From a bacterium (GTDB lineage Bacteria; Patescibacteriota; Patescibacteriia; JAGPKW01): 64,000 bases of DNA. Under the pieces are notes generated by a model. That model was given only the letters and a program-made list of their open reading frames with translations. It was not told the origin of the DNA and did not search any database. Location: the NCBI GenBank assembly GCA_021780535.1, contig JAJXYN010000012.1, positions 69,688 to 133,687 of the forward strand, read 5' to 3'. Below, piece after piece: positions 26,185 to 42,505 of the stretch (within the stretch, counting starts at the first letter, position 1; every line of letters begins with the position of its first letter). The position numbers and the translations under genes are program-made.

Positions 26185-26916
26185 ATGGAAAATAGTGGTT
26201 GGATAAAACTTCATAGAAAAATAGAAGAAAACTGGATATTTCAAGAAAAAAGAGTTTTCAGTAAATTTGAAGCTTGGCTACATTTTTTATTAAGAGCAAA
26301 CCATAAAGATAATAGAATATCACTCGGAAATGAAATAATAGAAATCAAACAAGGAAGTTTTATCACATCAGAAATTAAATTAATGAATCTTTTTAATTGG
26401 TCAAAGACTAAAATCAGATCTTTTTTAGAAGTCTTAGAAAAAGAAAAAATGATTATTAAAAAATCTGATACAAAAAAGACCACTATTTCCATTGTAAATT
26501 ATAATATTTACCAGAATTTAGAAACCACAAAAAAACCAAACAAAAACCAAAACAAAACTATAACAGAACCACAAAAAGACACAGACGAAGAATTTAAAAA
26601 TGAAAAGAATTATATAAATAACGATAATAGAAATTTTAAAAAATTTTCAGAAGATGAATTATTTAAAATAGATTATCTTTTAGAAAAAATAGGAAGTGAA
26701 AAAGAAAAACAAACTCTACTCGCAATAGCTTATCAATTAGGAATAAATTGGTTAGAAACTAGAATACCTTTTATTTTAGAAGATAGAGCAAATATAAATA
26801 ATATAGGTGCATATATTATGACTTTGGCTAAAAAAGATGGTTATGTACCAAAAAAGATAACAAAAAATAATTTTAGAGAAATGAAAAATATGATAATGGA
26901 AAAATTATCAATCTAA
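26185..26916 (+). CDS. phage/plasmid replication initiator-like protein (winged-helix N-terminal domain)
   Basis: N-terminus MENSGWIKLHRKIEENWIFQ...AWLHFLLRANHKDN...IKQGSFITSEIKL...WSKTKIRSFLEVLEKEKMI resembles the conserved GWIKLHRK...LLL.ANHKD N-terminus of a replication-protein family from Firmicutes phages and plasmids. Recalled from memory, not searched. Confidence 0.45.
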   Translation: MENSGWIKLHRKIEENWIFQEKRVFSKFEAWLHFLLRANHKDNRISLGNEIIEIKQGSFITSEIKLMNLFNWSKTKIRSFLEVLEKEKMIIKKSDTKKTTISIVNYNIYQNLETTKKPNKNQNKTITEPQKDTDEEFKNEKNYINNDNRNFKKFSEDELFKIDYLLEKIGSEKEKQTLLAIAYQLGINWLETRIPFILEDRANINNIGAYIMTLAKKDGYVPKKITKNNFREMKNMIMEKLSI

Positions 26917-26933
26917 AAAATCCAATAAAGACA

Positions 26934-27815
26934 ATGTCTAAAACAAGTTTTATACAAGTACCAGAAGAAATAACAGAAAAATATTATAACAATTTGCAAT
27001 CAGCAGATAGATTTATAATACCAAGAATGAGATTTAAAAAGACAATATTATCGAGACAATTTATAAAAGGATTAAAACAAAAAACTTATTTAAAACAAAT
27101 ATCAGAAATATGGAAAGAATTCACAAAAGAGCAAAAACAAGCATGGAAAAATGTGGATTCTAGGAAATACCCTCATGGTTGGAGAATGTTTGTAACTGAT
27201 CAAAGTTTAAGAATAAAGCTAGGACTTACCGGAATAGTAACGCCTAATATTTATCATCAAGACTTGGTTGGTAAAATTCAAATACAATCGCCAGCACAAG
27301 AAATAAAATTAATTCAATTACATCCAAATAGTTATTGGATAAGTAAAAAAGTAAAAGGTTCAAAAAACATGTACGAGCCTGTGAAGATTGAAGAATATTT
27401 ATCTTTACCTTTAAAAATAGGGATAAGTTATAAATCAAATTTAGAAGTAACCGGCGAAGGAGCTTTTGCAAAATATTTCGTACGAATAAGGCATTTATAT
27501 CAAGGCAGAAATTTATTTACAGATGTAAGTATAGATATGCTTGCAAATACAGATTGGACATATAAAGAAGCTCAAAATACTTTCATGTTAGGTCAAGCAA
27601 TTTCTTATGATTTATATATTCATTTATACAAAGTAAAAGGAGAATTATTATTTGATAATTTAAAAGCTATTCATTCAGGAAGTAATTGGGCAAGAGATCA
27701 ATATTGTAAAAAGATAGAAAGAACATACACGAGAGGATTTTATCAAATACCAGAACATTGGTCGCCAGTGATAATCTCTCAAGGTGCTGATTATAAATCA
27801 ATTTATCCTATTTAA
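26934..27815 (+). CDS. hypothetical protein (293 aa)
   Basis: ORF tightly packed with its neighbours. Confidence 0.5.
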   Translation: MSKTSFIQVPEEITEKYYNNLQSADRFIIPRMRFKKTILSRQFIKGLKQKTYLKQISEIWKEFTKEQKQAWKNVDSRKYPHGWRMFVTDQSLRIKLGLTGIVTPNIYHQDLVGKIQIQSPAQEIKLIQLHPNSYWISKKVKGSKNMYEPVKIEEYLSLPLKIGISYKSNLEVTGEGAFAKYFVRIRHLYQGRNLFTDVSIDMLANTDWTYKEAQNTFMLGQAISYDLYIHLYKVKGELLFDNLKAIHSGSNWARDQYCKKIERTYTRGFYQIPEHWSPVIISQGADYKSIYPI

Positions 27816-27823
27816 TTAAAAAT

Positions 27824-28645
27824 ATGTCAGATTTTCCAAATACAATTTATAACCCAAGAGCAAAAGAAAATATTTATGGTGTTGTTTTTGATACAGCAAA
27901 TAAAAAGATGGCTTATGCGGAAGATTTTCAATTTTTAGATAATGAGGTTGTCGCTATTGAAAATGAGTTAGGAATAAATATAAAAGGCGTTTATCTAACT
28001 TTGAGAGAAAGAATAGAAAAAATGGAAATTGATATTTTTTTAGCAAATGATACTTTAGAGCCAAAAGCAAATAAATTTGAAATAGTAGATTTCTCAAATT
28101 TTACAGCAAGTAAAGTAGGTTCAGGTTCTAATATTAAAACGTGTTTTAGATTAAAACTTGCAACAGGAACTACAATAAACAGCAATGCAATAGCATATTT
28201 AAAATATTATAATTACGGGAATGCAGAATTTAGTTTTGATGAGAGTTTTCGTTTAATATTTTTTATAACTCAAATTTCAGGCGTTTTAAACGCTAATACT
28301 TTCTTAAAGGTAGATAATGACATAAATCCAGTAAATCCATCTAGCAAGGCCATAGGATTCAAATTAAATGGGTATAAATTGTTTGGCATTATTCACAATG
28401 GTACAAGTCTTCAAGAAATTGATTTGACTAAAAACCTTAATGCAAATGGAAAATTTAAACTAGAAATAAAATTTTTTATGTATAGTAAAATTGAATTTTA
28501 TGTAAATGATGTTAAGAGAGGCGAAAGTCAAAATATTCCTAATAGCTCAATGACTAATTCTAATATTTCAGTAAGTGTTGCAAATAATGCAGTTGCTAGT
28601 AATCAAGAAATTGCAGTGGGAAAAATATATTTAAGTGCTATATAA
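27824..28645 (+). CDS. hypothetical protein (273 aa), paralog of the next gene
   Basis: Shares the C-terminal block KIEFYVNDVKRG with 28651-29454 (IEFYVNDLLLA). Confidence 0.5.
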   Translation: MSDFPNTIYNPRAKENIYGVVFDTANKKMAYAEDFQFLDNEVVAIENELGINIKGVYLTLRERIEKMEIDIFLANDTLEPKANKFEIVDFSNFTASKVGSGSNIKTCFRLKLATGTTINSNAIAYLKYYNYGNAEFSFDESFRLIFFITQISGVLNANTFLKVDNDINPVNPSSKAIGFKLNGYKLFGIIHNGTSLQEIDLTKNLNANGKFKLEIKFFMYSKIEFYVNDVKRGESQNIPNSSMTNSNISVSVANNAVASNQEIAVGKIYLSAI

Positions 28646-28650
28646 AAAAT

Positions 28651-29454
28651 ATGAGTATAGAAAATTGGTGTAATTTACCAAAATCACAAATTGATAATGA
28701 AACAATAGAAAATGCTATAAAAAGATTAATACAAGCACATTGCAATGATGTTAATGCACATTTGGAAGATGGTCAGAGCTTACACTCTCATAAAGCAAGT
28801 GAGGTTATAGATCATTTAGCATTTTCAATAGTGTCAGACAAAATTCAACAAGGAGCTATAAAATTCTATCAAGTTGAAGATAATTTGAGGGTTAAATATA
28901 CTCCACCGCTTGAAAGTATGGATGGTTGGAATTCGTATGGTGTTAATTTAACTTTGGGTGGTTTTTCCATGTATCAAGCTAATTTGCAGAATGTTTTATA
29001 TTATGCGATGACTTCCGGAATAGTTCCATTGAATTGGGAAAAGAATTTTACTTTTTCATTTCTTTGTAAAATTGGAGATACTACAAACTGTGTTGCTTAT
29101 GCTCTTGCTGGTGATGTTATGTATGATTCAGAAGATCAAGGAATTGGTTTTAAATTCATGAATAATAAAGTTTATACAACGCATGTAAGTATGATTAATG
29201 ATGTTCTTACTGAATTTTTAACTGAAATAAATGTTCAAAATAAAAATAGTTTTAATTTATATAGAGTTGAATTTGTTGCAGGTCAAAAAATTGAATTTTA
29301 TGTAAATGATCTTTTACTTGCTACACATACAATAAATTTTCCAAGTCAGTATTATTGTCACGGAATTATATTTTGTTTCAATATAAAGAATGTAAAAGTT
29401 GGATATGGTGCAATGTATGAAGTTGGGCAATTATATTTTGCTCAAGATAAATAA
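28651..29454 (+). CDS. hypothetical protein (267 aa), paralog of the previous gene
   Basis: Shared IEFYVND block. Confidence 0.5.
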   Translation: MSIENWCNLPKSQIDNETIENAIKRLIQAHCNDVNAHLEDGQSLHSHKASEVIDHLAFSIVSDKIQQGAIKFYQVEDNLRVKYTPPLESMDGWNSYGVNLTLGGFSMYQANLQNVLYYAMTSGIVPLNWEKNFTFSFLCKIGDTTNCVAYALAGDVMYDSEDQGIGFKFMNNKVYTTHVSMINDVLTEFLTEINVQNKNSFNLYRVEFVAGQKIEFYVNDLLLATHTINFPSQYYCHGIIFCFNIKNVKVGYGAMYEVGQLYFAQDK

Positions 29455-29469
29455 TTAATAAAAATAATA

Positions 29470-29904
29470 ATGGAAATAGCTGAAATAATAACAGGGAAGG
29501 AATATCCTGAAAAAGTTATACCGATGATAGAAAATTGTAAAAAATCTATAGATATAGTTGTATTTGATTGGCGATGGTATCCGGATCAAATAGGGTCTAG
29601 TATTCAAAGATTTAATAATGCAATTGTTAAAAAAGGAAATACTGGAAAGCAAATAAGGGCAATAACAAATACAAAAGAAATTTCAAATGTTTTAATTCAA
29701 GGAAATATAAAAGCAAAAATATGGAAATCAAAAAGATTATTACATACAAAATTAATGATGATAGATGATGAAATTGCAATAATAGGAAGTCATAATTATA
29801 CATTAAATGCTTTTACAATAAATCAAGAAGTTTCTTTAATTATCAAGCAGAAACAAGTTTTAGAAAAATTAAAATTATATTTTGAAAATTTATGGCAGTT
29901 ATAA
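29470..29904 (+). CDS. phospholipase D-family (single HKD) Nuc-like endonuclease
   Basis: HTKLMMIDDEIAIIGSHN matches HxK(x4)D(x6)GSxN. The ~144-aa size is typical of dimeric Nuc-type PLD nucleases. Confidence 0.7.
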   Translation: MEIAEIITGKEYPEKVIPMIENCKKSIDIVVFDWRWYPDQIGSSIQRFNNAIVKKGNTGKQIRAITNTKEISNVLIQGNIKAKIWKSKRLLHTKLMMIDDEIAIIGSHNYTLNAFTINQEVSLIIKQKQVLEKLKLYFENLWQL

Positions 29905-30254
29905 AGCCAATACAGGAAGTTAAATCTTTAAATATTAAAAATAAATTAGGTACTTCATCTAATTTTGGTCAATTAACATTTGGTGAGACTAGATTTGGTC
30001 AATTTAAAAGTGAATATGGAATATATCAACAAAGAAGAAAAAGAAAAATTAAAATAACGATAAAAACTAAATTCTACTTACCAAAAAATCCAAAAACAGA
30101 AAGACAAATGATAAACCGATTAAAATTTAAAGAAGCAGTAAAAAAATGGCAAAATTTGACAAATAATGAGAAAGAAAAATATAATATAAGTACAAAATAT
30201 AAAAACTTATCAGGATATAATTTATTTATTAAACTAACTTTACTATCTAATTAA
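29892..30254 (+). CDS. hypothetical basic protein (120 aa)
   Basis: ORF overlapping the upstream gene by 13 nt. Confidence 0.4.
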   Translation: MAVIKPIQEVKSLNIKNKLGTSSNFGQLTFGETRFGQFKSEYGIYQQRRKRKIKITIKTKFYLPKNPKTERQMINRLKFKEAVKKWQNLTNNEKEKYNISTKYKNLSGYNLFIKLTLLSN

Positions 30255-32015: not shown

Positions 32016-32639
32016 ATGGAAATAAATAAAAGATATAAACAAAATATATTAATACCAGATCAATTTTTGACCCAGAACGAAGTTGGGTGCTTGTTGAAAT
32101 CCATAGATACAAGAACATTTTTAGGAAAAAGAGATAAAGTAATTCTGTTGTTATTTTTAAATACAGGACTTAGAAAAAATGAATTATTAAGTTTGAATAT
32201 AGAAAACTATAAAAAAGAAAATAATGATTATTGGTTAGAATTCAAAGCAAAAGGCGGACAAATACATATACAAAATATATCTCAAATAGAAGTTATAAAA
32301 GCCGTAGATTCATATTTAAAATTATGGAAAATAGGAAACAATGAATTAGAGCCTATATTTCAAAGTACTTATGATTGCAAAAATAAGAGTGGCAAAAGAT
32401 TAAGTAAACAGTCATTAGAATTTATGCTTAAAAAATATGGCAAACAAGCAGGAATTCAAAAAAAATTACATATTCATATGTTAAGACATACAGCAGGAAG
32501 TGAATTTTATAGATTAACTCAAAATTTACCTTTAACTCAAATGTTTTTAAGACATAAAAGTATAAATTCAACTCTTATCTATATGCACGCAGACAAAACA
32601 AAAGTAAAAGAAGTTCAAAAATTGATGTTCAAAAATTAG
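32016..32639 (+). CDS. tyrosine recombinase, catalytic-domain-only (207 aa; lacks N-terminal core-binding domain)
   Basis: R...HxxR...Y motifs: GLRKNELLSL, HMLRHTAGSEF and LRHKSINSTLIYMH (Tyr nucleophile). Confidence 0.7.
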   Translation: MEINKRYKQNILIPDQFLTQNEVGCLLKSIDTRTFLGKRDKVILLLFLNTGLRKNELLSLNIENYKKENNDYWLEFKAKGGQIHIQNISQIEVIKAVDSYLKLWKIGNNELEPIFQSTYDCKNKSGKRLSKQSLEFMLKKYGKQAGIQKKLHIHMLRHTAGSEFYRLTQNLPLTQMFLRHKSINSTLIYMHADKTKVKEVQKLMFKN

Positions 32640-32790
32640 AAAAAAATCTCAAAGAAATCATCAAAAAAATACAGGACAAATCTTGAAAAATAACTCAGAT
32701 CAAACTCGAAAAAAATATCAGAAAAAACTTTGAAAAAATATCAAACTAAATATCAATAAAAACCTAAATAAAATATCTAACAAACAAAAG
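32640..32790. repeat. array of short direct repeats (AAAT[A/C]TCA, ~7 copies at ~12-35-nt spacing), arm-type-site-like, downstream of the recombinase gene
   Basis: AAAATCTCA, AAATCATCA, AAATCTTGA, AAATATCAG, AAATATCAAAC, AAATATCAAT and AAATATCTA. Confidence 0.35.
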
Positions 32791-32792
32791 AT

Positions 32793-33212
32793 ATGATTAT
32801 AAAAGATCTAAATAGATTAAATAAAAAAGTAAAAGAATTATGCGAAAAATTTATCAATGAGTGTAAAAACAAAGATATAACTGTAATTATCACAGAAACA
32901 TTTAGAGATAAATCAAGACAAGAACAAGCAGTAATCGAAAATAAAAGCAATGCTCATTTTGGTTACTCATTTCATAATTATGGATTAGCTTTCGATTTTG
33001 CTGTGTTAAATAAAAATAAAGGAATCACTTGGAATGTAAATAAAGATAAAAATTGGTTTATTTGCGGTGAAATCGGTAAGAAACTAGGTCTTTCTTGGGG
33101 TGGTGATTGGAAAATGAAAGATTATTGTCATTTTGAGTTCTATTTTAATATAAATAGAGATGTTTTGCTTAATAAATTATTAAAAGGATTTGATGCTAAT
33201 AAATTAAGTTAA
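32793..33212 (+). CDS. M15-family zinc peptidase (VanY / L-Ala-D-Glu endopeptidase-like), phage endolysin-like
   Basis: SFHNYGLAFDFAV matches the H..G.A.D zinc-ligand pattern, and DYCHFE matches D..H. Confidence 0.7.
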   Translation: MIIKDLNRLNKKVKELCEKFINECKNKDITVIITETFRDKSRQEQAVIENKSNAHFGYSFHNYGLAFDFAVLNKNKGITWNVNKDKNWFICGEIGKKLGLSWGGDWKMKDYCHFEFYFNINRDVLLNKLLKGFDANKLS

Positions 33213-33858: not shown

Positions 33859-35982
33859 ATGTTAAAAGTTCAAATAGAAAAAAATAAAATATTTTCTCCT
33901 CTTAGAAAAAAATGGTTAATAAATACTCCAGAAGAAGAAGTCAGACAAGGTTATATTTGTAAGCTTGTTAATGATTATGGGTATGATTTAGAACAAATAG
34001 ATGAAGAGTTGCAGGTAAATAATAGTTTAAGAGGACAAGGTAAATCAAGAGCAGATATTGTCATTTGGAAATCAAAAGAAGAAAGGTTGAGCAAAAAAAA
34101 TGCTTTTATTGTTGTTGAATGTAAATCTGATAATGTTGTTATACATCCAGAAGATTATTATCAAGGTAATAACTATGCTTCTTGGGCAAGGGCTAAATTT
34201 TTTATTACTCACAATAATGCTGAAACAAAGTATTTTCAGATGCTTGAAGATAAATTACCTATTGATTTAAATGAAATAGCTAATATACCCAAAGCGGAAG
34301 AAGTAAATAATGAGATTAGATTGAAAGAGTTAGTTGATGAAACTAAAGTATTTACTAGAGATGAATTTTCAAAGTTACTTTATAAATGTCATACAATAAT
34401 TAGAAATAATGACAAACTTTCTCCTGAAGGTGCTTTTGATGAAATTAGTAAAATATTATTTATTAAGATAAGATATGAAAGACAAAAAGGGAAAAATATA
34501 TTTTCTCTTGCTCGTTTTAATGAATTAAAAAATAATTATGAAGAAACTGCTTCTAGAAACTCTAAGCCGTTTTATCAAAATTTATTTGAAAAAACAAAAG
34601 ATGATTTAGAGAAAGATGAACTTTTTGAAACGAATGAAGAGATAAAAATTCGTGAAAATAGCTTTGAACAAATAGTAAAAGAACTGGAGAAATATAATCT
34701 TTCAGATACAGGAGATGATGTTAAAGGAATAGCTTTTGAGCAATTTTTAGGCAAAACATTTAGAGGTGAGCTTGGGCAATTTTTTACTCCTAGAACAATA
34801 GTTGATTTCATGGTTGATATTTTAGACCCAAAAGAAAATGATTTAATTTGTGATCCTTGTTGTGGATCTGGTGGTTTTCTTATTAAAGCTTTTGACTATA
34901 TTAGAGCTAAAATTGAAGCTGATATTTTGAGACAAAAAGAAGAAATCAAAAATAAATATTTTGATGAAAAGTATCAAAAATTAGATGATAAAGAAAAGCA
35001 AAAGATTGATGATACTGTAGAACGTGAATTTAAGAAATTGAATCAAGAACTAGATAATAAAATAGAAAAATCTAGATTACATAATTTATCTCATAATTGT
35101 ATATATGGTTCTGACGCTAATCCAAGAATGGCAAGAACTAGTAAAATGAATATGATTATGCATGGTGATGGTCATGGTGGAGTTCATCATAATGATGGAT
35201 TATTGGATGTTAATGGTATCTTTGAAAACCGTTTTGATATAATTCTTACAAACCCTCCTTTTGGTTCAAGAGTTGGCAAAGATCACAAAATAACAGATAA
35301 TGATAATAAATATAAAGGCAAAGAATCTTATATTAAAGAAAAATTTGGTGATGCAGGTTTAAATGCAATATCTAATTTAGAGAATAACATTGGTAAAAAT
35401 CTTATAGAAACTTATGAAACTGGAAGTTTTTCAACTCTTACAGAAGTTTTGTTTATGGAACGTTATCTAAGATTGCTTAAGCAAGGTGGGAAAATGGCCG
35501 TTGTTTTGCCAGAGGGTTTTTTAAATAATCCAAATTTACAAAAAGTAAGAGAATATTTTGAAGGTAGAGCTAAGATTGAGCTTATCGTTTCTATCCCTCA
35601 GGATGTATTTATAGCTAGCGGGGCTACGGTAAAGCCCAGTTTGGTGTTTTTACAAAAATTTACTCAAGTAGATAGTAAAAAATATGAAAAAATAAAAGAG
35701 GAAGTAAATAAAAATATTATAGAAAAATATCAAATTCAAATAGATGAATTAGAAAATGAATTAGAAAAACTAAAAGGAGATAAAAGAAAACTAAAGAAAA
35801 AAGAATTGGATAATTTAGAAATTCTTATTGAAACTGAGATAAAACAGGAGATTAAAAATAAATTTGATTATCAAATACCAATAGTAGAAGTTGAAAAAGC
35901 TGGCATTACAACAACAGGAGAAAAATGTGAAAATGAACTTTTAGATGTAGTAAAAGAGTATAGAAAATATAAATCTAAATAA
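33859..35982 (+). CDS. restriction-modification enzyme subunit: N-terminal HsdR_N-like PD-(D/E)xK nuclease domain fused to a gamma-class N6-adenine methyltransferase (BcgI A-subunit-like type IIB; alternatively an unusual type I HsdM)
   Basis: N-terminus RGQGKSRADIVIW...IVVECKSDN gives a D...ExK motif. MTase motif I DPCCGSGGFL and motif IV ILTNPPFGS. The adjacent HsdS-like gene and the absence of a helicase-type HsdR in the window fit a BcgI-like A/B system. Confidence 0.7.
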   Translation: MLKVQIEKNKIFSPLRKKWLINTPEEEVRQGYICKLVNDYGYDLEQIDEELQVNNSLRGQGKSRADIVIWKSKEERLSKKNAFIVVECKSDNVVIHPEDYYQGNNYASWARAKFFITHNNAETKYFQMLEDKLPIDLNEIANIPKAEEVNNEIRLKELVDETKVFTRDEFSKLLYKCHTIIRNNDKLSPEGAFDEISKILFIKIRYERQKGKNIFSLARFNELKNNYEETASRNSKPFYQNLFEKTKDDLEKDELFETNEEIKIRENSFEQIVKELEKYNLSDTGDDVKGIAFEQFLGKTFRGELGQFFTPRTIVDFMVDILDPKENDLICDPCCGSGGFLIKAFDYIRAKIEADILRQKEEIKNKYFDEKYQKLDDKEKQKIDDTVEREFKKLNQELDNKIEKSRLHNLSHNCIYGSDANPRMARTSKMNMIMHGDGHGGVHHNDGLLDVNGIFENRFDIILTNPPFGSRVGKDHKITDNDNKYKGKESYIKEKFGDAGLNAISNLENNIGKNLIETYETGSFSTLTEVLFMERYLRLLKQGGKMAVVLPEGFLNNPNLQKVREYFEGRAKIELIVSIPQDVFIASGATVKPSLVFLQKFTQVDSKKYEKIKEEVNKNIIEKYQIQIDELENELEKLKGDKRKLKKKELDNLEILIETEIKQEIKNKFDYQIPIVEVEKAGITTTGEKCENELLDVVKEYRKYKSK

Positions 35983-35983
35983 C

Positions 35984-37339
35984 ATGGTTTCTGTGATAAA
36001 TAAAATTGAATATAAATATTTACAATTCACATCTTTTAAAAATTGGTTAAATTGGGATGTAAAAAGTTATGCAAAAAACAATCTTAAATCAGATTATGAG
36101 TTTATAAAATTAGGCTCTGTGTTAAAAGAACATGTTGAAAAAGTAAAATTAAAAGATTTTCCAGACAAAGAGTTTGGTATTTTAGGTGTAAATAATAAAA
36201 TTGGTATTTTCGATGCTTATTTGGAAAAAGGTTCAAAAATAAATCAGCCATATAAAATATTAAAAAACAATTGGATTGCTTATAATCCTTATCGTGTAAA
36301 TGTTGGTTCAATAGGAATTAAAACACAAAATGAAAAATATGAGTATATAAGTAATGCTTATGTTGTTTTTAGTTGTGATGAACAAAGATTAGATACGGAT
36401 TTCTTTTTTAGACTTTTTAAAACAGATACATTTAATAATCTTGTTAAGAAATCAACGAAAGGTTCTGTTCGTCAAAATCTTTCTTTTGATTTACTTAGTA
36501 ATATTCAAATTCCTTTGCCTTCTATTAGTGCTCAAAAAGAATTTATAAAAATTTATAATAATAAAATATCAGACATTAAAAAACTAGAAATTCAAGTTAA
36601 CGAAATAAGTAGTAAAATTGAAAGTTATTTAATGAAAGAGCTTAATATAAGCGTAGAGAAAACTCAAAAAATAAAAGGTCTTCATTTTGTAAATTTTAAA
36701 AATTTAAATAAGTGGACATTAAATGAAACAACTTTAGAGAAAATACAAGAAAAATCAAAATATAAGGCTGTCCCAATAGAAAAAATATCAGAAAGTATTT
36801 TAAGAGGAAAATCTCCAAAATATGACGATAATTCTAATTGTGTTATTTTAAATCAAAAATGTAATCGTTGGGATGAAATTGATTTGGAATTTGCAAAAAC
36901 AGTAAATAAAGAATGGCTAAATAAGCAAACTCTTTTTACTAAAGAAAGTGATGTTTTGATAAATTCAACCGGCGAAGGAACAATTGGAAGATCTACGTAT
37001 ATATTAAAAAGTTATGAGGGGTTACTTTTTGATAGTCATCTACTTTTATTTAGGGGAGATAAAAAAATTATAAATGGAAAATATTTTGTGTATTGGTTTA
37101 ATTCAACAATAAATCAACAATATCTGAATGAAATAAAATCAGCGCAAACAACAAAACAAACAGAATTAGGATCTAATAATTTAAGTAATATGTTGATTCC
37201 TTTACCACCTCTTGAAACGCAAGAAGAAATAGTAAATCAAATAGATTCTTGGAAAAATAAAATTAAGGATATTAATGAAAAAATTGAGTCATTAAGAGAA
37301 GGTGCTCAAAAAGAATTTGAAGTTAATCTTTTTAAATAG
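35984..37339 (+). CDS. HsdS-like specificity subunit (two target-recognition domains), partner of the upstream nuclease-MTase
   Basis: Start is 2 nt after the upstream stop. Bipartite repeated TRD architecture with conserved central and C-terminal coiled regions. Confidence 0.75.
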   Translation: MVSVINKIEYKYLQFTSFKNWLNWDVKSYAKNNLKSDYEFIKLGSVLKEHVEKVKLKDFPDKEFGILGVNNKIGIFDAYLEKGSKINQPYKILKNNWIAYNPYRVNVGSIGIKTQNEKYEYISNAYVVFSCDEQRLDTDFFFRLFKTDTFNNLVKKSTKGSVRQNLSFDLLSNIQIPLPSISAQKEFIKIYNNKISDIKKLEIQVNEISSKIESYLMKELNISVEKTQKIKGLHFVNFKNLNKWTLNETTLEKIQEKSKYKAVPIEKISESILRGKSPKYDDNSNCVILNQKCNRWDEIDLEFAKTVNKEWLNKQTLFTKESDVLINSTGEGTIGRSTYILKSYEGLLFDSHLLLFRGDKKIINGKYFVYWFNSTINQQYLNEIKSAQTTKQTELGSNNLSNMLIPLPPLETQEEIVNQIDSWKNKIKDINEKIESLREGAQKEFEVNLFK

Positions 37340-37368
37340 ATGCAATAAAGTAAAATTTATAAAAAATA

Positions 37369-37398
37369 AAAAACTAAGATTTATTTCTTAGTTTTTTT
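37369..37398 (+). terminator. intrinsic terminator (AAAAACTAAGA-loop-TCTTAGTTTTT + T run)
   Basis: Hairpin followed by a T run after the HsdS-like gene. Confidence 0.55.
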
Positions 37399-37506
37399 AT
37401 TTTTTATAAAGTTCATGATTTGTTCATTTTTTGCATACCTTATTGAAAAAACATTTAAAAGGTGTATCATTAAATAGTAAATATACTAAATGATTTTTAT
37501 AAAAAT

Positions 37507-38781
37507 ATGAATGAAATTATATGTCCAAATTGTAAAAAAGCTTTTAAAGTTGATGAGGCTGGTTTTGCTGATATTCTTAAACAAGTCCGCGATGAAGCGT
37601 TTAGTAAAGAATTAAAAGAACGTGAGAGAATGTTTGCTGAAGATAAAGAGAATTCTATTAAATTAGCTGAAGCAAATATTAAAAATTTGTTACAAAAAGA
37701 TATTTCAAAAAAAGAAACGGAAATAGCTGAAATAAAAGCTAAAAAAGATTTAGAGATTGCTGAACTTGATGCAAAAAAAGAAGCTGAATTGGCTGAAATG
37801 AAATCAAAAATAGATAATGCAGAAATTGAGAAAAAACTTGCCGTAACTGAAGCAGTAAATAAAATTGAGAAAGATCGTGATAATCTTGCAGGTGAATTAA
37901 AAATTAAAGATACAGAAAAACAATTACTTGAAACATCATTAAAAGAAAAATATATCACAGAACTTAAAACAAAGGATGATATTATTAAAATGAAAGATGA
38001 TGAAATTGCTCTTCGTAAAGATATGAAAGTTAAACTTTCTACAAAAATGATAGGTGAAACATTAGAACAACATTGCGAAACAGAGTTTAATAAACTTCGT
38101 GCTACTGGTTTTCAAAATGCATATTTTGAAAAAGATAATGATGTAAAAACTGGTAGTAAGGGTGATTATATTTATCGTGAAAATACTGAAGAAGGTAATG
38201 AAATTATTTCTATTATGTTTGAAATGAAAAATGAAGGAGATGAAACTGCTACAAAGAAAAAAAATGAAGATTTTTTACGTGAGCTTGATAAAGATCGTAT
38301 AGAGAAAAAATGTGAATACGCGGTGCTTGTTACTCTTCTTGAATCTGAAAATGAATTATATAACACTGGTATCGTTGATGTTTTTCATAAATATCCAAAA
38401 ATGTATGTAATTCGTCCACAATTTTTTATTCAAATAATAACTTTATTACGTAATGCAGCTACGAATTCTCTAAAATATAAAGCAGAACTTGCATTAGTAA
38501 GAAATCAAAATGTTGATATTACAAATTTTGAGGACAATGTAAATAAATTTAAAGAAGAATTTGGAAGAAATTATGAATTGGCCAGTCGTAAGTTTAAAAC
38601 AGCTATTGAAGAAATAGATAAAACAATAGATCATCTTCAAAAAACTAAAGAAGAACTTTTATCATCTGAAAACAACCTTCGTTTAGCCAATAATAAAACA
38701 GAGGATTTAACCATTAAAAAACTAACACGTGGTAATCCTACTATGACAGCTAAATTTGCAGAGATTACAAATATTAAATAA
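37507..38781 (+). CDS. DUF2130-family protein: N-terminal zinc ribbon, long coiled coil, C-terminal PD-(D/E)xK-like region
   Basis: N-terminus [32 protein letters not shown] matches the characteristic DUF2130 start (from memory). The C-terminal GDYIY...IMFEMKNE...CEYAVLV has a D...E.K pattern. Confidence 0.55.
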
Positions 38782-38795
38782 TAACTAAAATATAT

Positions 38796-39008
38796 ATGCA
38801 AAGACAAAATGTTTCATCTTCTGATATTGCTTCAATTGGGTACGATCAAAATTTATTCATATTAGAAATTGAATTTTTAAGTGGAGGAATATATCAATAT
38901 ATTAATGTGCCAAGTAGTATTTTTCAAGGAATAATGTCCGCTTCTTCTCATGGTGTTTATTTTCATCAATATATTAAAGATAAATATAGCTGTAATAAAA
39001 TTAAATAA
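38796..39008 (+). CDS. KTSC-domain small protein (70 aa)
   Basis: ...IASIGYDQNLFILEIEFLSGGIYQYINVPSSIFQGIMSASSHGVYFHQYIKDKY matches the KTSC domain pattern (I..GYD.....L.VEF..G..Y.Y..VP...........SKG.YFN..I...Y). Confidence 0.6.
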   Translation: MQRQNVSSSDIASIGYDQNLFILEIEFLSGGIYQYINVPSSIFQGIMSASSHGVYFHQYIKDKYSCNKIK

Positions 39009-39010
39009 AT

Positions 39011-40897
39011 ATGTTTTTAACAAAATTAATAATAATAAATAACAAAAGTTGCAAAAGAGTAATTTTAGAACCATCTAAGGATGAGCCAGAAATTTTGATT
39101 GGTATAAACGATTGCGGAAAGTCTACAATTTTAAAGTCTTTAGATTTATTTTTTGATGAGAAAAAAAATTTTAGTTTTATTAAAGAAGATCAACAAAAAA
39201 ATGATCTTTCAAACTCTCCTTTAAACAACTTAGAAATCAATGAATTATTAGAAGAAAATAAGTATCCAAGTTTTTTTGAGTATTCTGGTGATGTTATTAT
39301 CGTTATTTGTCAATTTGAGGTAGAAGAAAATGATTTAAAAAATAATGAATTTCAAGAAAGTTCAAAAAATGCTCATTTAAAATGGAGTATTATTGATAAT
39401 AAAATAAATTTAATGCGTGTATTTCATAATTCTGAACAAGGATCACAGAATTTGAGCGGGTATTATTTACTAACTAATGATTATAAAGATAATGAAAGTT
39501 ATTTAGAGTTATGGAATAAGCCAGCTAAAGAATTAACAGAAATTAAGAAAAAATTTAATATTGATAATAAAGATGTAGATAATGAAAATAATGTTGGTCG
39601 TTTAAAGAATATTGAAAATATAGAGGCAATTTATAAAAAAATGCCTACCTTATGTATGAAATGGTCTAAATATAGTGATTTTTCAAAAGATAAAACATTC
39701 TACCCAAATTTTAAATATTTGGATTGGAATTTTTCTTTAAAGGAATTAGAAGATATAGCTACTGAGGCAATGAATAAGGTGACAGAACCACTACTTCAAG
39801 AGATAAGACAGTTGGTTTCTGAAAAACAATCCGAAGCTATAATCGGTGTTAATAATGAATTTGCTAGTATGATGGGAGATTTGAAAGATGATCTACCTAA
39901 GTGTGTAAAAAAAATTAGCTCATCAGTATTTTTTGATGTAAGTCAAAAGGTTACTGATATAAAACTAGAAAAAGAAAATGTTGATGGAGAAATACATATA
40001 GATAATCAAGGAGAGGGCATAAAGAGGCAGATTTGGTTTGCGTTGTTAAAGTGGCGTAGTAAATTAATATCTAATGAAAATAAATCAAATAAATATGTTT
40101 GGTGTTTTGATGAACCAGAAACACATTTATATCCTGCCGCACAAAGGCAACTCTTTGAGACATTAAAAGAAATGTGTAGTAATGAATTTCAAATATTATT
40201 GAGCACACACTCAACAATTTTTATAGATAGAACAAAAATTAGTGATGTTAAGCAAGTAACTTTAGAAGGTGGTTACTCAACTATTTATAAAAGCGATAAC
40301 TCAACAGATCTTTTTAATTGTTTGGGTATAAAAAATAGTGATTTTTTGTTTTTTGATAAGTTTTTAGCCGTAGAAGGCTTTACTGAGTATGGTTTAATTC
40401 CATATTTGTATCAGTTGAAATATTCTAGGTCATTATTAAATGATGGAATACAAATCATCAACTTAAAAGGGGAAGACCAATATTTAAATAATAAAGGTAT
40501 CTTAGAAAATATTTTATCTGATTTTCAGAAGACTAGTGATAAAATTTTTTATTTATTTGATAATGATACAGGAATGTCTGGCGACAATATTTTTACTTCT
40601 GGCACTTATGATATAGAAGATTCTATTGAAAATAATATTTGGATTGAATTTGTAAAAGATAATTGTGATATAGATATAACGGAAGATATTTTGAATAATG
40701 ATATAAGAAAAAAATTAGAAAACAAGAATGGTAAAAAATTTTATAAGTTACTTGGAGATTATGTAGTAAAAAATTTAAAAGATGAAAAATATTTGCCATC
40801 TAAAGCTAGATCGGGTTATTTGTTAACTAAGTATTTTAAAGACATTAAAGATATTCCTAAAAAAATTGATAACCTTTTTAACGCATTAAGTTCTTAA
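39011..40897 (+). CDS. OLD-family ATP-dependent endonuclease (N-terminal ABC/AAA_15-type ATPase + C-terminal TOPRIM)
   Basis: Walker A GINDCGKST. Walker B / D-loop region VWCFDEPETHLYP...ILLSTHS. TOPRIM motifs LAVEGFTE and FYLFDNDTG (DxD). Confidence 0.65.
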   Translation: MFLTKLIIINNKSCKRVILEPSKDEPEILIGINDCGKSTILKSLDLFFDEKKNFSFIKEDQQKNDLSNSPLNNLEINELLEENKYPSFFEYSGDVIIVICQFEVEENDLKNNEFQESSKNAHLKWSIIDNKINLMRVFHNSEQGSQNLSGYYLLTNDYKDNESYLELWNKPAKELTEIKKKFNIDNKDVDNENNVGRLKNIENIEAIYKKMPTLCMKWSKYSDFSKDKTFYPNFKYLDWNFSLKELEDIATEAMNKVTEPLLQEIRQLVSEKQSEAIIGVNNEFASMMGDLKDDLPKCVKKISSSVFFDVSQKVTDIKLEKENVDGEIHIDNQGEGIKRQIWFALLKWRSKLISNENKSNKYVWCFDEPETHLYPAAQRQLFETLKEMCSNEFQILLSTHSTIFIDRTKISDVKQVTLEGGYSTIYKSDNSTDLFNCLGIKNSDFLFFDKFLAVEGFTEYGLIPYLYQLKYSRSLLNDGIQIINLKGEDQYLNNKGILENILSDFQKTSDKIFYLFDNDTGMSGDNIFTSGTYDIEDSIENNIWIEFVKDNCDIDITEDILNNDIRKKLENKNGKKFYKLLGDYVVKNLKDEKYLPSKARSGYLLTKYFKDIKDIPKKIDNLFNALSS

Positions 40898-40946
40898 TAT
40901 AATTTGTACACAATAATTGTTCAAATATTTCTCTAAAACTAAACAA

Positions 40947-40976
40947 AAAAGCACTTATACACAGTGCTTTTTTTGT
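40947..40976 (+). terminator. intrinsic terminator (AAAAGCACT-loop-AGTGCTTTT + T run)
   Basis: Hairpin followed by a T run after the OLD-family gene. Confidence 0.6.
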
Positions 40977-41160: not shown

Positions 41161-41352
41161 TTATTTTTTCTTTTCTTTGGCTTCTGGAAATACTTTTAAG
41201 AAATCATCTTCATTTACTACTACGATTTCTTTTTTTATTTCTCTTTTTGAGGCTTTTAGTTCTTTTGATAAGACTTTTCTTCTTATTGTTTCATAATGTA
41301 CGCCGTATTTTTTTGATAATTCTAGTAGAGTATATTCTTTATTATCGGACAT
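41161..41352 (-). CDS. excisionase/MerR-like HTH DNA-binding protein (63 aa)
   Basis: YTLLELSKKYGVHYETIRRKV is HTH_17-like. Divergent from the integrase gene, with an intergenic 7-bp inverted repeat TGTGTAT-ca-ATACACA. Confidence 0.5.
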   Translation of the reverse strand: MSDNKEYTLLELSKKYGVHYETIRRKVLSKELKASKREIKKEIVVVNEDDFLKVFPEAKEKKK

Positions 41353-41575: not shown

Positions 41576-42505
41576 ATGGCAGAAATTATTAATATTGATA
41601 AGAGTAATATTAAAATAGTAAATGATTTTTTAGATTGGTTGGCTATCGGACATTCTTTGGAAACAGTTGATTCATATAAGTGGCCTTTGAGATTATTTTG
41701 TAAATGGTTATCTGGCAAAGAAAAAAATGTTATTGATATGAAAGAAAAAGATTTTGTAGCCTTTCATTTATTTTTAAAAGAAGACAGGCAGGTAAAAAAT
41801 TCAACGATGGCTCATTATTTTACATCTATTAGAACACTTTGGAGATATATGTATAGAAATGAAATGGTAAATTATGGTGATGATAAAATTCCAATGCCAA
41901 AAGCTGATGATAAACAATCTTATCCTTATGCGGAAGAGGCTGATATAAATAAAATACTTGATTCATTTAGGGGCTGGGATATAAAAGATATTAGAGATAA
42001 AGCTATTGTTTCTTTATTGTATAAGACAGGTTTAAGAATAGGAGAGTTGAGAAGTCTTGATATTTCTGATGTTGATTTAGAATTTAAAAAAGCTACTGTT
42101 CAAACTGAAAAAAGGATAGGACACAAAAGAGAAATTTATTGGGATGATAAAACAAATGAATTTTTAAAAAACTGGATAGATACAAGAGAAGAATTTTTAC
42201 TACAAGAAAGACGATCAGAAAATGCTTTATTTATAGGTATGACAATGGGTAGTAAAGATAAAAGAATAGATAGATCAACAGTACAAAAGATGTTTAGAAA
42301 AAAAAGAGATGAGTTAGGAATAAATAAAAAACTAACACCACATTCTTGCAGACATGGATTCGGACATAGAGCAGTAGAAAAGAATGTAAATATTAGATAT
42401 CTTCAAGTAATGCTTGGGCATTCAAAAATAGACACAACAATGATTTATATGGGTTGTAAAAATAAAGACGTAGAAACTGCTTATAGACAATTAATGTTCG
42501 CTTAG
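41576..42505 (+). CDS. tyrosine site-specific integrase (XerC/XerD-like, full length with N-terminal core-binding domain)
   Basis: RIGELRSL (Arg), HSCRHGFGHR (HxxR) and LGHSKIDTTMIYM (His and Tyr nucleophile). Confidence 0.85.
   Translation: MAEIINIDKSNIKIVNDFLDWLAIGHSLETVDSYKWPLRLFCKWLSGKEKNVIDMKEKDFVAFHLFLKEDRQVKNSTMAHYFTSIRTLWRYMYRNEMVNYGDDKIPMPKADDKQSYPYAEEADINKILDSFRGWDIKDIRDKAIVSLLYKTGLRIGELRSLDISDVDLEFKKATVQTEKRIGHKREIYWDDKTNEFLKNWIDTREEFLLQERRSENALFIGMTMGSKDKRIDRSTVQKMFRKKRDELGINKKLTPHSCRHGFGHRAVEKNVNIRYLQVMLGHSKIDTTMIYMGCKNKDVETAYRQLMFA

Follow-up and report, generated by a model that had tools for sequence, protein, structure and literature searches.

A putative KTSC-OLD nuclease module with a facultative DUF2130 gene in a variable island of a Patescibacteria genome

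The stretch of DNA analysed here, referred to as the window, comprises 64,000 nt of contig JAJXYN010000012.1 (GenBank assembly GCA_021780535.1, positions 69,688 to 133,687 of the forward strand) from a member of the Patescibacteriota, and positions given without a locus label are those of this whole stretch. The element in question is a cassette of three co-oriented genes on the + strand, encoding a DUF2130 protein of 424 amino acids (aa) (gene 1, 37507-38781), a stand-alone KTSC-domain protein of 70 aa (gene 2, 38796-39008) and an OLD-family ABC ATPase fused to a TOPRIM nuclease of 628 aa (gene 3, 39011-40897). The open reading frames (ORFs) were assigned using Pfam in each case, and using PADLOC and an alignment in addition for gene 3. 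Genes 1 and 2 are separated by 14 nt, and genes 2 and 3 by 2 nt. A preliminary description made from the sequence alone had reported the three co-oriented ORFs with these gaps, and its coordinates proved exact. The window is ~25% GC and lacks Shine-Dalgarno sequences, and the nearest homologues of the encoded proteins belong to metagenome bins of the Patescibacteria, also known as the candidate phyla radiation (CPR).

The cassette had also been described as having its own terminators, and these were located on both sides. Upstream, a hairpin followed by a T-run at ~37361-37404 (+ strand, inverted repeats I25 and I10, seen in the sequence) ends the preceding restriction-modification (R-M) transcription unit after its S-subunit gene; being too AT-rich, it failed the G-C criterion of the terminator scan. 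Downstream, a bidirectional terminator-like hairpin follows gene 3 at 40945-40973, as judged by the terminator scan and the sequence. The best + strand promoter match, TTGAAA-16-TATCAT at 37443-37470, agrees with the consensus at 10 of 12 positions and is placed just upstream of gene 1, though it is a consensus match only, and such sites are not enriched in the AT-rich DNA here as compared with shuffled sequences. Given this promoter-like site 5' of gene 1 and the hairpins on both sides, genes 1-3 look co-transcribed.

Gene 3 was matched by the Pfam families AAA_15 (E=9e-34), AAA_21 (E=3e-16) and OLD-like_TOPRIM (E=2e-6), and its translation contains GINDCGKST, DEPETHLYP, STHS, VEGFTE and DND. 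In an alignment of 33 sequences, the ATPase columns G31, K37, Q333-G334-G336, D367-E368 and H400 are invariant, as are the TOPRIM glutamate E455 and the DxD metal site (D517 and D519). The Walker A, Walker B, H-loop and TOPRIM motifs listed in the preliminary description are all present, and on invariant columns. When searched by sequence against solved structures, gene 3 found only the Thermus OLD (class 1). The AlphaFold 2 (AF2) model of gene 3, with a mean predicted local distance difference test score (pLDDT) of 83.6, was matched in Foldseek by the Thermus OLD 6p74 (5e-16), GajA (~1e-14 to 1e-15) and the Retron-Eco8 OLD (~1e-12), each with a probability of 1.00 and an identity of 13-15%. 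The TM-scores against the solved OLD proteins are low (~0.3) because the domain arrangement differs. As the fold matches to these three proteins are of a similar level, gene 3 is a bona fide OLD-family protein that is roughly equidistant from the characterised classes; its ABC ATPase and TOPRIM metal site are intact, and it has the OLD fold. Homologues matched at E<1e-10 number at least 426. For the gene 3 OLD, plasmids yielded no match and phages only two, both weak, and it was absent from the predicted viral contigs of IMG/VR.

Gene 2 matches Pfam KTSC (PF13619) with E=7e-23 and 80.5 bits against a cut-off of 25, over profile positions 1-58 of 58. It aligns end to end, across all 70 residues, with the solved 70-aa KTSC protein 7x8c (E=2e-23), and also with residues 628-695 of the HerA subunit in the Paenibacillus SIR2-HerA defence complex 8wiv. 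This KTSC-like stretch falls in the HerA 'C-terminal arm domain', which stabilises the HerA hexamer (PMC11472057). Aravind and colleagues considered KTSC to be DNA-binding, and mentioned systems of HerA plus KTSC plus an endoDNase as unpublished observations (PMC9503650).

Gene 1 matches Pfam DUF2130 (PF09903) over residues 152-408 with E=1.9e-87 and 293 bits, against a gathering cut-off of 26.7. DUF2130 is listed in the PD-(D/E)XK superfamily with function unknown (PMC3424549). Residues D220, E239 and K241 are invariant in both of the DUF2130 subfamilies encountered in this work. The AF2 model of gene 1 (mean pLDDT 68.7) consists of a small N-terminal hairpin, a ~160-residue helix, an alpha-beta-beta-beta-alpha-beta core and a helical tail, and the predicted core carries D220/E239/K241 at beta-2 and beta-3, with E193 also in the core set. 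On its family assignment, residues and modelled core, the gene 1 product is placed in the PD-(D/E)xK superfamily as a predicted nuclease. A Foldseek search of the PDB with this model, which is dominated by the long helix, gave no match at E<0.1, and a profile search against PDB sequences returned coiled-coil noise only. The DUF2130 domain, coiled coil and PD-(D/E)xK-like core given for gene 1 in the preliminary description were thus all recovered, while its zinc ribbon was reduced to a single CPxC knuckle (C6, C9), located in the hairpin at the N-terminus; H189, C190 and C269, which are the remaining invariant Cys/His residues, lie far away along the chain and are not shared by the second DUF2130 subfamily. 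Within the coiled-coil helix, three tandem 33-nt repeats (37706-37815) encode an 11-residue repeat.

The genes flanking the OLD clade were examined in 72 loci, consisting of the window, 63 orthologue-grade loci (33-67% identity, one genome per species) that span the CPR, Bacteroidota, Chloroflexota, Ignavibacteriota and Proteobacteria, and 8 closer metagenomic relatives obtained by exact look-up. Cultured carriers are Psychroflexus planctonicus (L028), Pedobacter nanyangensis (L035), Muriicola sp. Z0-33 (L051) and Chishuiella changwenlii (L055). Partner genes were counted in flanks of 8 kb using profile hidden Markov models (HMMs); tblastn alone missed the second DUF2130 subfamily in the loci labelled L001, L004, L011, L012 and L016, which the profile HMM recovers. 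A canonical KTSC gene abuts OLD in ~24 of the 72 loci (CPR, Bacteroidota and Ignavibacteriota), nearly always immediately upstream, and the gaps of 0-12 nt in most loci with KTSC indicate that it is probably translationally coupled to OLD. Some small partner is present in ~35 of the loci, the alternatives in the KTSC slot being KTSC-like genes, WYL-like genes and an unannotated class of 107-128 aa. The last was found directly upstream of OLD in CPR relatives (L001:7674-7997, L163:4328-4651, L003:7641-7994 and L009:830-1216) and is marked by the motif PFDFGPSRRNLxPNP; it has no match in Pfam, NCBIfam, PHROGs or PADLOC.

Two further arrangements of KTSC modules were observed. In L027, a 616-aa protein with SLFN_AlbA_2, HATPase_c_4, Fic-like_C and C-terminal KTSC domains (L027:5696-7990) is encoded just upstream of a stand-alone KTSC gene, followed by a KTSC-like gene and OLD, giving three KTSC-type modules in a row. 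In the 63% relative L164, KTSC is encoded on the downstream side of OLD (L164:6943-7365) and comprises 140 aa, with a C-terminal extension that by eye includes a J-domain-like 'HPD' segment (...LILRFHPDRSWGNEE...), which no family search confirmed.

A DUF2130 gene abuts OLD or its small partner in 11 of the 72 loci. Five of these genes precede OLD, in the window and the L001/L004/L162/L163 group, and six follow it, in L009, L011, L012, L015, L016 and L020. Since all 11 genes are abutting and co-oriented, and none was found elsewhere in the 8-kb flanks, the adjacency of DUF2130 and OLD is non-random. In 11 loci, a family of 343-350 aa abuts the OLD stop codon downstream (for example, L006:6820-7851 and L031:9908-10939), and a small partner gene precedes OLD in all 10 of these loci where the upstream side is visible. 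This family, with a mean column identity of 80%, gave weak PDDEXK_15 matches in five members and had no match among NCBIfam, PHROG or PADLOC families. An hhalign comparison with DUF2130 placed the D...ExK motifs in register at a probability of 12% (E=0.0024), a level at which homology of the two families was not established. Taken together, 17 of the 72 loci are triads in which a small protein and OLD are joined by a third gene, which is DUF2130 in 7 and the 343-aa family in 10.

The preliminary description had presented the three genes as a cassette and candidate defence system; that this cassette is conserved is not borne out by the closest relatives. Among 11 informative close relatives (OLD 59-86% identity), both KTSC and DUF2130 are present in the window only. 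The closest (86%) has the order type III Res - KTSC - OLD, with Res where DUF2130 would be; four relatives have hsdM - DUF2130 - (107 aa) - OLD - hsdS - hsdR; and two have neither KTSC nor DUF2130. The three families do occur together elsewhere, as KTSC-OLD-DUF2130 in L011 and L012 and as KTSC-like-OLD-DUF2130 in L016. Hence, their co-occurrence beyond the window was upheld, though not as a conserved or obligate trio.

The divergence of the partners was compared with that of OLD. Pairwise identities of KTSC and OLD correlate across 15 loci (Spearman 0.32, Mantel permutation p ~0.004), whereas those of DUF2130 and OLD are uncorrelated (rho 0.13, not significant). The window and L009 share 38% identity in OLD and 77% in DUF2130, the corresponding values for the window and the L001 group are 63-66% and 24-26%, and those for L020 and L016 are 74% and 25%. 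These discordant identities imply that DUF2130 would have been placed beside the OLD clade at least ~7 separate times, independently, from two subfamilies and in both gene orders. Abutting OLD and diverging along with it, KTSC seems to form a genuine two-gene module with OLD. Judged by gene order and divergence, the conserved unit is thus taken to be KTSC-OLD, and DUF2130 a facultative third gene to which at least one alternative exists.

The reverse view, from DUF2130, was obtained in 80 metagenomic loci with 55-83% identity to the DUF2130 of the window, and in none of these was an orthologous OLD found. The neighbours are hypervariable, the 345 flanking proteins of these loci falling into 317 clusters. 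Tightly linked neighbours include defence-type genes (GmrSD, AAA_13, AAA_15/21, ResIII, DUF559, RhuM, an SLFN-type helicase and HipA) as well as unrelated genes, and a distant OLD-like gene stands directly beside DUF2130 in two loci, L082 and L146. In L150 (1043-5675) the order is DUF2130 - SIR2 - HerA - KTSC, with SIR2 confirmed by Pfam, and in L152 (1702-6548) it is a SIR2-sized 419-aa gene - HerA - KTSC - DUF2130. DUF2130 was considered as the 'endoDNase' of HerA-KTSC variants and set aside; SIR2 lies between DUF2130 and HerA in L150, and the SIR2-sized gene precedes HerA in L152, so DUF2130 looks like a neighbour in these loci and not like an effector that replaces SIR2. The window-type DUF2130 has hundreds of relatives at 80-86% identity over many deeply divergent CPR lineages (proteins P0122-P0240 among those), and DUF2130 is present on 22 predicted viral contigs (loci L166-L187), which carry no member of the OLD clade. 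Such identity across divergent lineages, together with the viral contigs, suggests that this type spread recently by horizontal transfer. Given the absence of the OLD clade from all 80 loci, the hypervariable neighbours and the viral contigs, DUF2130 appears to be mainly a solitary, mobile gene of variable or defence regions.

The OLD clade module typically sits inside or directly downstream of an R-M operon. Using local profiles, R-M genes on the same strand within 5 kb were detected at at least 24 of the 72 OLD loci and at 9 of the 11 close relatives, counts that are lower bounds given that several large downstream genes in the Bacteroidota loci were unrecognised. The R-M systems around OLD are of type I in the L001 group, L159 and L161, of type IIG in L011, ISP-like in L015 and L020, and of type III in L016, L156 and L160; the partner in the window is an HSDR_N-methyltransferase plus S pair. 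The embedding of a defence system within a type I R-M operon is an established arrangement, as in TgvAB. By analogy, the linkage of the OLD clade to R-M genes suggests a role coupled to restriction, either in degrading cut DNA or as a backup, like PrrC and PARIS, when restriction is blocked.

On balance, the cassette is probably, though far from certainly, a composite, in which a KTSC-OLD core module representing a context variant of the OLD anti-phage nucleases is joined by a facultative DUF2130. The OLD ATPase-TOPRIM protein would most likely nick or degrade invading DNA under ATP control, as other OLDs do. Translational coupling, co-divergence and the HerA precedent suggest that KTSC would probably bind the OLD oligomer, serving as a small adaptor for nucleic-acid binding or for assembly, and in this position it could gate or target the ATP-controlled DNA nicking or exonuclease activity of OLD against the invading DNA. 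This activity may back up the neighbouring R-M system or finish DNA that the R-M system cut. DUF2130, probably co-transcribed in the window, may add a second or auxiliary nuclease activity; compare HEC-02, a validated system of an ABC ATPase and a PD-(D/E)xK (NERD) nuclease in which both genes are required (Payne et al., bioRxiv 10.1101/2024.01.29.577857). That DUF2130 was recruited repeatedly to the slot abutting the OLD clade points to some benefit of proximity, and it would not be an obligate component.

Several observations weigh against this composite reading. About half of the OLD loci lack a recognisable small partner and many lack a third gene; OLD may thus function on its own. The correlation between KTSC and OLD is of modest size and might be due in part to the common phylogeny of the hosts. 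Only ~1/3 of the loci showed R-M linkage, as a lower bound, and the role in backing up R-M is proposed by analogy only. Furthermore, recruitment of DUF2130 to the abutting slot together with the exchange of its subfamilies could mean a functional dependence that tolerates partner swapping.

A broader reading, which we advance tentatively, is that the OLD clade would form a new class, defined by context, of modular systems tethered to R-M, in which OLD works with a small adaptor and a coiled-coil PD-(D/E)xK nuclease, both of them exchangeable. The adaptor would be KTSC, KTSC-like, WYL-like or of the unannotated 107-aa family, the nuclease would be DUF2130 or of the 343-aa family, and the system would degrade DNA cut by the adjacent R-M system or fire once that system is disabled by phage anti-restriction. 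If this holds, it would provide the first assigned functions for DUF2130 and stand-alone KTSC proteins.

It is unlikely that the three genes make up one obligate defence system, with OLD, a KTSC adaptor and a DUF2130 nuclease in a complex and the 343-aa family as an alternative third subunit. Such a system would accord with the tight spacing, the shared promoter and terminator and the 17 triads, with the confinement of DUF2130 to the abutting position in the flanks examined, and with the presence of different DUF2130 subfamilies in the same slot beside closely related OLDs. The PDDEXK_15 matches of the 343-aa family, weak as they are, and its D...ExK motifs in register with DUF2130 point the same way, and HEC-02 shows that an ABC ATPase and a PD-(D/E)xK nuclease can be co-dependent. 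However, the distribution of the partners among the 11 close relatives, with the 86% relative lacking an upstream DUF2130 and two others lacking both genes, is not that of an obligate trio; DUF2130 is solitary in at least 77 of the 80 loci surveyed and does not co-diverge with OLD, and the hhalign probability linking it to the 343-aa family is only 12%.

The opposite view, that three independent units share a defence-island or R-M cargo slot, comprising a lone class 1-like OLD, a single-gene DUF2130 nuclease and an unrelated KTSC DNA-binding protein or regulator, is held to be quite unlikely. Many OLD loci are without a partner, unrelated genes are stacked within R-M operons in L159 (OLD + HEPN_AbiV) and L161 (OLD + Hypoth_Ymh), DUF2130 also stands beside SIR2-HerA, GmrSD and AAA_13 genes, and class 1 OLDs can defend alone. 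Nevertheless, independence would not account for a KTSC gene that abuts OLD at 0-12 nt in ~1/3 of the loci across phyla and co-diverges with it, or for DUF2130 genes that are abutting and co-oriented in every OLD locus where they occur. A non-immune role in DNA repair, recombination or chromosome maintenance, RmuC-like for the PD-(D/E)xK protein and Cran1-like for OLD, is very improbable; the Xer-like recombinase nearby, the 80-86% identity of DUF2130 across CPR lineages, which could reflect a constrained cellular role, and an archaeal OLD-family ATPase that acts in cell-cycle progression, not defence, according to PMC12796447, are set against a patchy distribution, hypervariable contexts, R-M and other defence neighbours, and a spread over divergent lineages and 22 viral contigs that fits horizontal transfer better than vertical housekeeping.

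The composite of a KTSC-OLD core and a facultative DUF2130 is therefore preferred, and the new defence system proposed in the preliminary description is retained in part, in that the trio looks co-transcribed and has unmodelled partners, without being a fixed three-gene system. DUF2130 and stand-alone KTSC, which are large families of no known function, would gain testable roles. The reading also bears on how R-M systems may be backed up or extended in reduced-genome CPR bacteria, the defence repertoires of which are poorly understood.

The R-M unit that precedes the cassette in the window (33859-37339, + strand; Pfam and PADLOC) consists of two genes, for a 707-aa nuclease-methyltransferase fusion and a 451-aa S subunit. 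In Pfam, the 707-aa protein has an HSDR_N_2 nuclease-like N-terminus fused to an N6 methyltransferase, and PADLOC scored the pair as MTase_I (1072 bits) and Specificity_I (283 bits). No separate hsdR was found in the island beside the pair, which we take to resemble a two-subunit arrangement of a nuclease-methylase plus specificity protein (type IIB-like). A MADS identity was considered and rejected, the similarities to MAD2, MAD3 and MAD5 being far below the NCBIfam cut-offs.

Downstream of gene 3, the terminator hairpin is followed by a 63-aa ORF on the reverse strand (41161-41352, - strand), which matches no family and is divergently paired with a tyrosine recombinase gene (41576-42505, + strand), and Pfam detected no helicase there. 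The recombinase matches Pfam Phage_integrase, and its best NCBIfam models are XerA, XerD and XerC, all below cut-offs; it could be a Xer-type recombinase of the chromosome and not the integrase of a mobile element. Beyond it lie the housekeeping genes Smr, serS and mreB. As the recombinase is Xer-like below cut-offs and housekeeping genes follow, the region is described as a variable island beside the R-M pair, with a mobile-element integrase not established. The cassette had been placed between an R-M system and an integrase; the R-M pair is indeed directly upstream, and the integrase is the Xer-like gene just described. A search of the island edges for att-like repeats or a tRNA gave nothing convincing, the sole tRNA being at 53.6 kb. 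Pfam scans of the neighbouring ORFs found no GajB-like helicase, DUF4435 protein or reverse transcriptase nearby.

Two further groups of genes were noted upstream. Between the rpoA-rplQ operon and the island, at 26185-30254, four consecutive ORFs of 243-293 aa, none of them matched in Pfam, precede a gene for a 144-aa PLD-family (Nuc/NgoFVII-like) nuclease and a 120-aa ORF; together these could represent a further unit of defence type. Immediately before the R-M pair, at 32016-33212, are a 207-aa tyrosine-recombinase gene (catalytic domain only) and a gene for an M15-family peptidase (endolysin-like), which may be left over from a mobile element or prophage.

The configuration had been put forward as undescribed, and this stands, as no paper in the searched literature and no PADLOC v2.0.0 model links DUF2130 or KTSC to OLD. 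PADLOC matched gene 3 to its generic Old, AriA and GajA models only, HEC-04 was not among the best 25 of the 63 PADLOC families matched, and v2.0.0 has no model for KTSC, either DUF2130 subfamily, the 343-aa family or the other small partners, so that genes 1 and 2 are left without a model. OLD nucleases are classified by genomic context, as occurring alone, with a helicase, in a retron, or split as in PARIS (PMC10568477). Since the field uses this criterion, the cassette is best regarded, from its gene neighbourhoods, as a new context variant of the known OLD family, neither categorically new nor a fixed three-gene system, and a widespread OLD clade that is coupled to KTSC, frequently has a third gene of PD-(D/E)xK type and frequently lies inside R-M operons of several types would add a further OLD class.

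Class 1 OLDs (P2 Old, the Thermus scotoductus OLD 6p74 and the Vibrio cholerae OLD) are the best match of gene 3 among solved structures in both sequence and fold, though 6p74 shares only 14% identity with gene 3 over the structural alignment, and like the OLD of the window they have no helicase partner. However, class 1 is defined as single genes that are not beside other defence genes (PMC10568477), whereas the OLD of the window has KTSC 2 nt upstream, DUF2130 in the same unit and the R-M pair directly upstream, and in its clade OLD often occurs together with KTSC or another small gene, with a third gene of nuclease-like type and with R-M operons. Gabija (class 2) also includes an OLD-family nuclease, GajA, with a partner encoded next to it, and GajA matches gene 3 at about the level of class 1; its partner is the UvrD-like GajB, in contrast to the 70-aa KTSC and PD-(D/E)xK-like proteins of the window, which has no adjacent helicase. 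Class 3 OLDs (retron I-B) need a reverse transcriptase and msr/msd; no reverse transcriptase domain was found in the neighbouring ORFs of the window, where no RNA search was run. PARIS (class 4), composed of the ABC ATPase AriA and the DUF4435 TOPRIM protein AriB, resembles gene 3 in its OLD-related ABC ATPase, over which the PADLOC AriA models match, but has a separate TOPRIM protein, whereas the TOPRIM of gene 3 is fused and no DUF4435 gene is found among its neighbours. PARIS stands for phage anti-restriction induced system and is conceptually tied to restriction (PMC11464382).

The logic of an embedded architecture is common to the cassette and to HEC-02 and HEC-04, the latter a validated embedded ABC ATPase-TOPRIM fusion in which Walker A and TOPRIM metal-site residues are required (10.1101/2024.01.29.577857). 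The HEC systems are embedded in Hma systems, and a KTSC or DUF2130 component is not described there. Like the OLD clade, PrrC and RloC are ABC-type ATPases fused to a nuclease inside type I R-M operons, but theirs is an anticodon nuclease and that of gene 3 is TOPRIM. PrrC is kept inactive by its R-M partner until a phage anti-restriction peptide releases it. It is almost exclusively embedded in type I R-M (10.1101/2024.01.29.577857). Finally, SIR2-HerA shares with the cassette a KTSC attached to, or encoded right after, a defence NTPase (8wiv; L150 and L152), and DUF2130 adjoins it too; its NTPase is a HerA/FtsK-type hexamer with SIR2 as the effector, as opposed to the ABC/OLD ATPase of the cassette. 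The presence of KTSC beside HerA-based systems as well as OLD hints that it may be a general small adaptor for defence NTPases.

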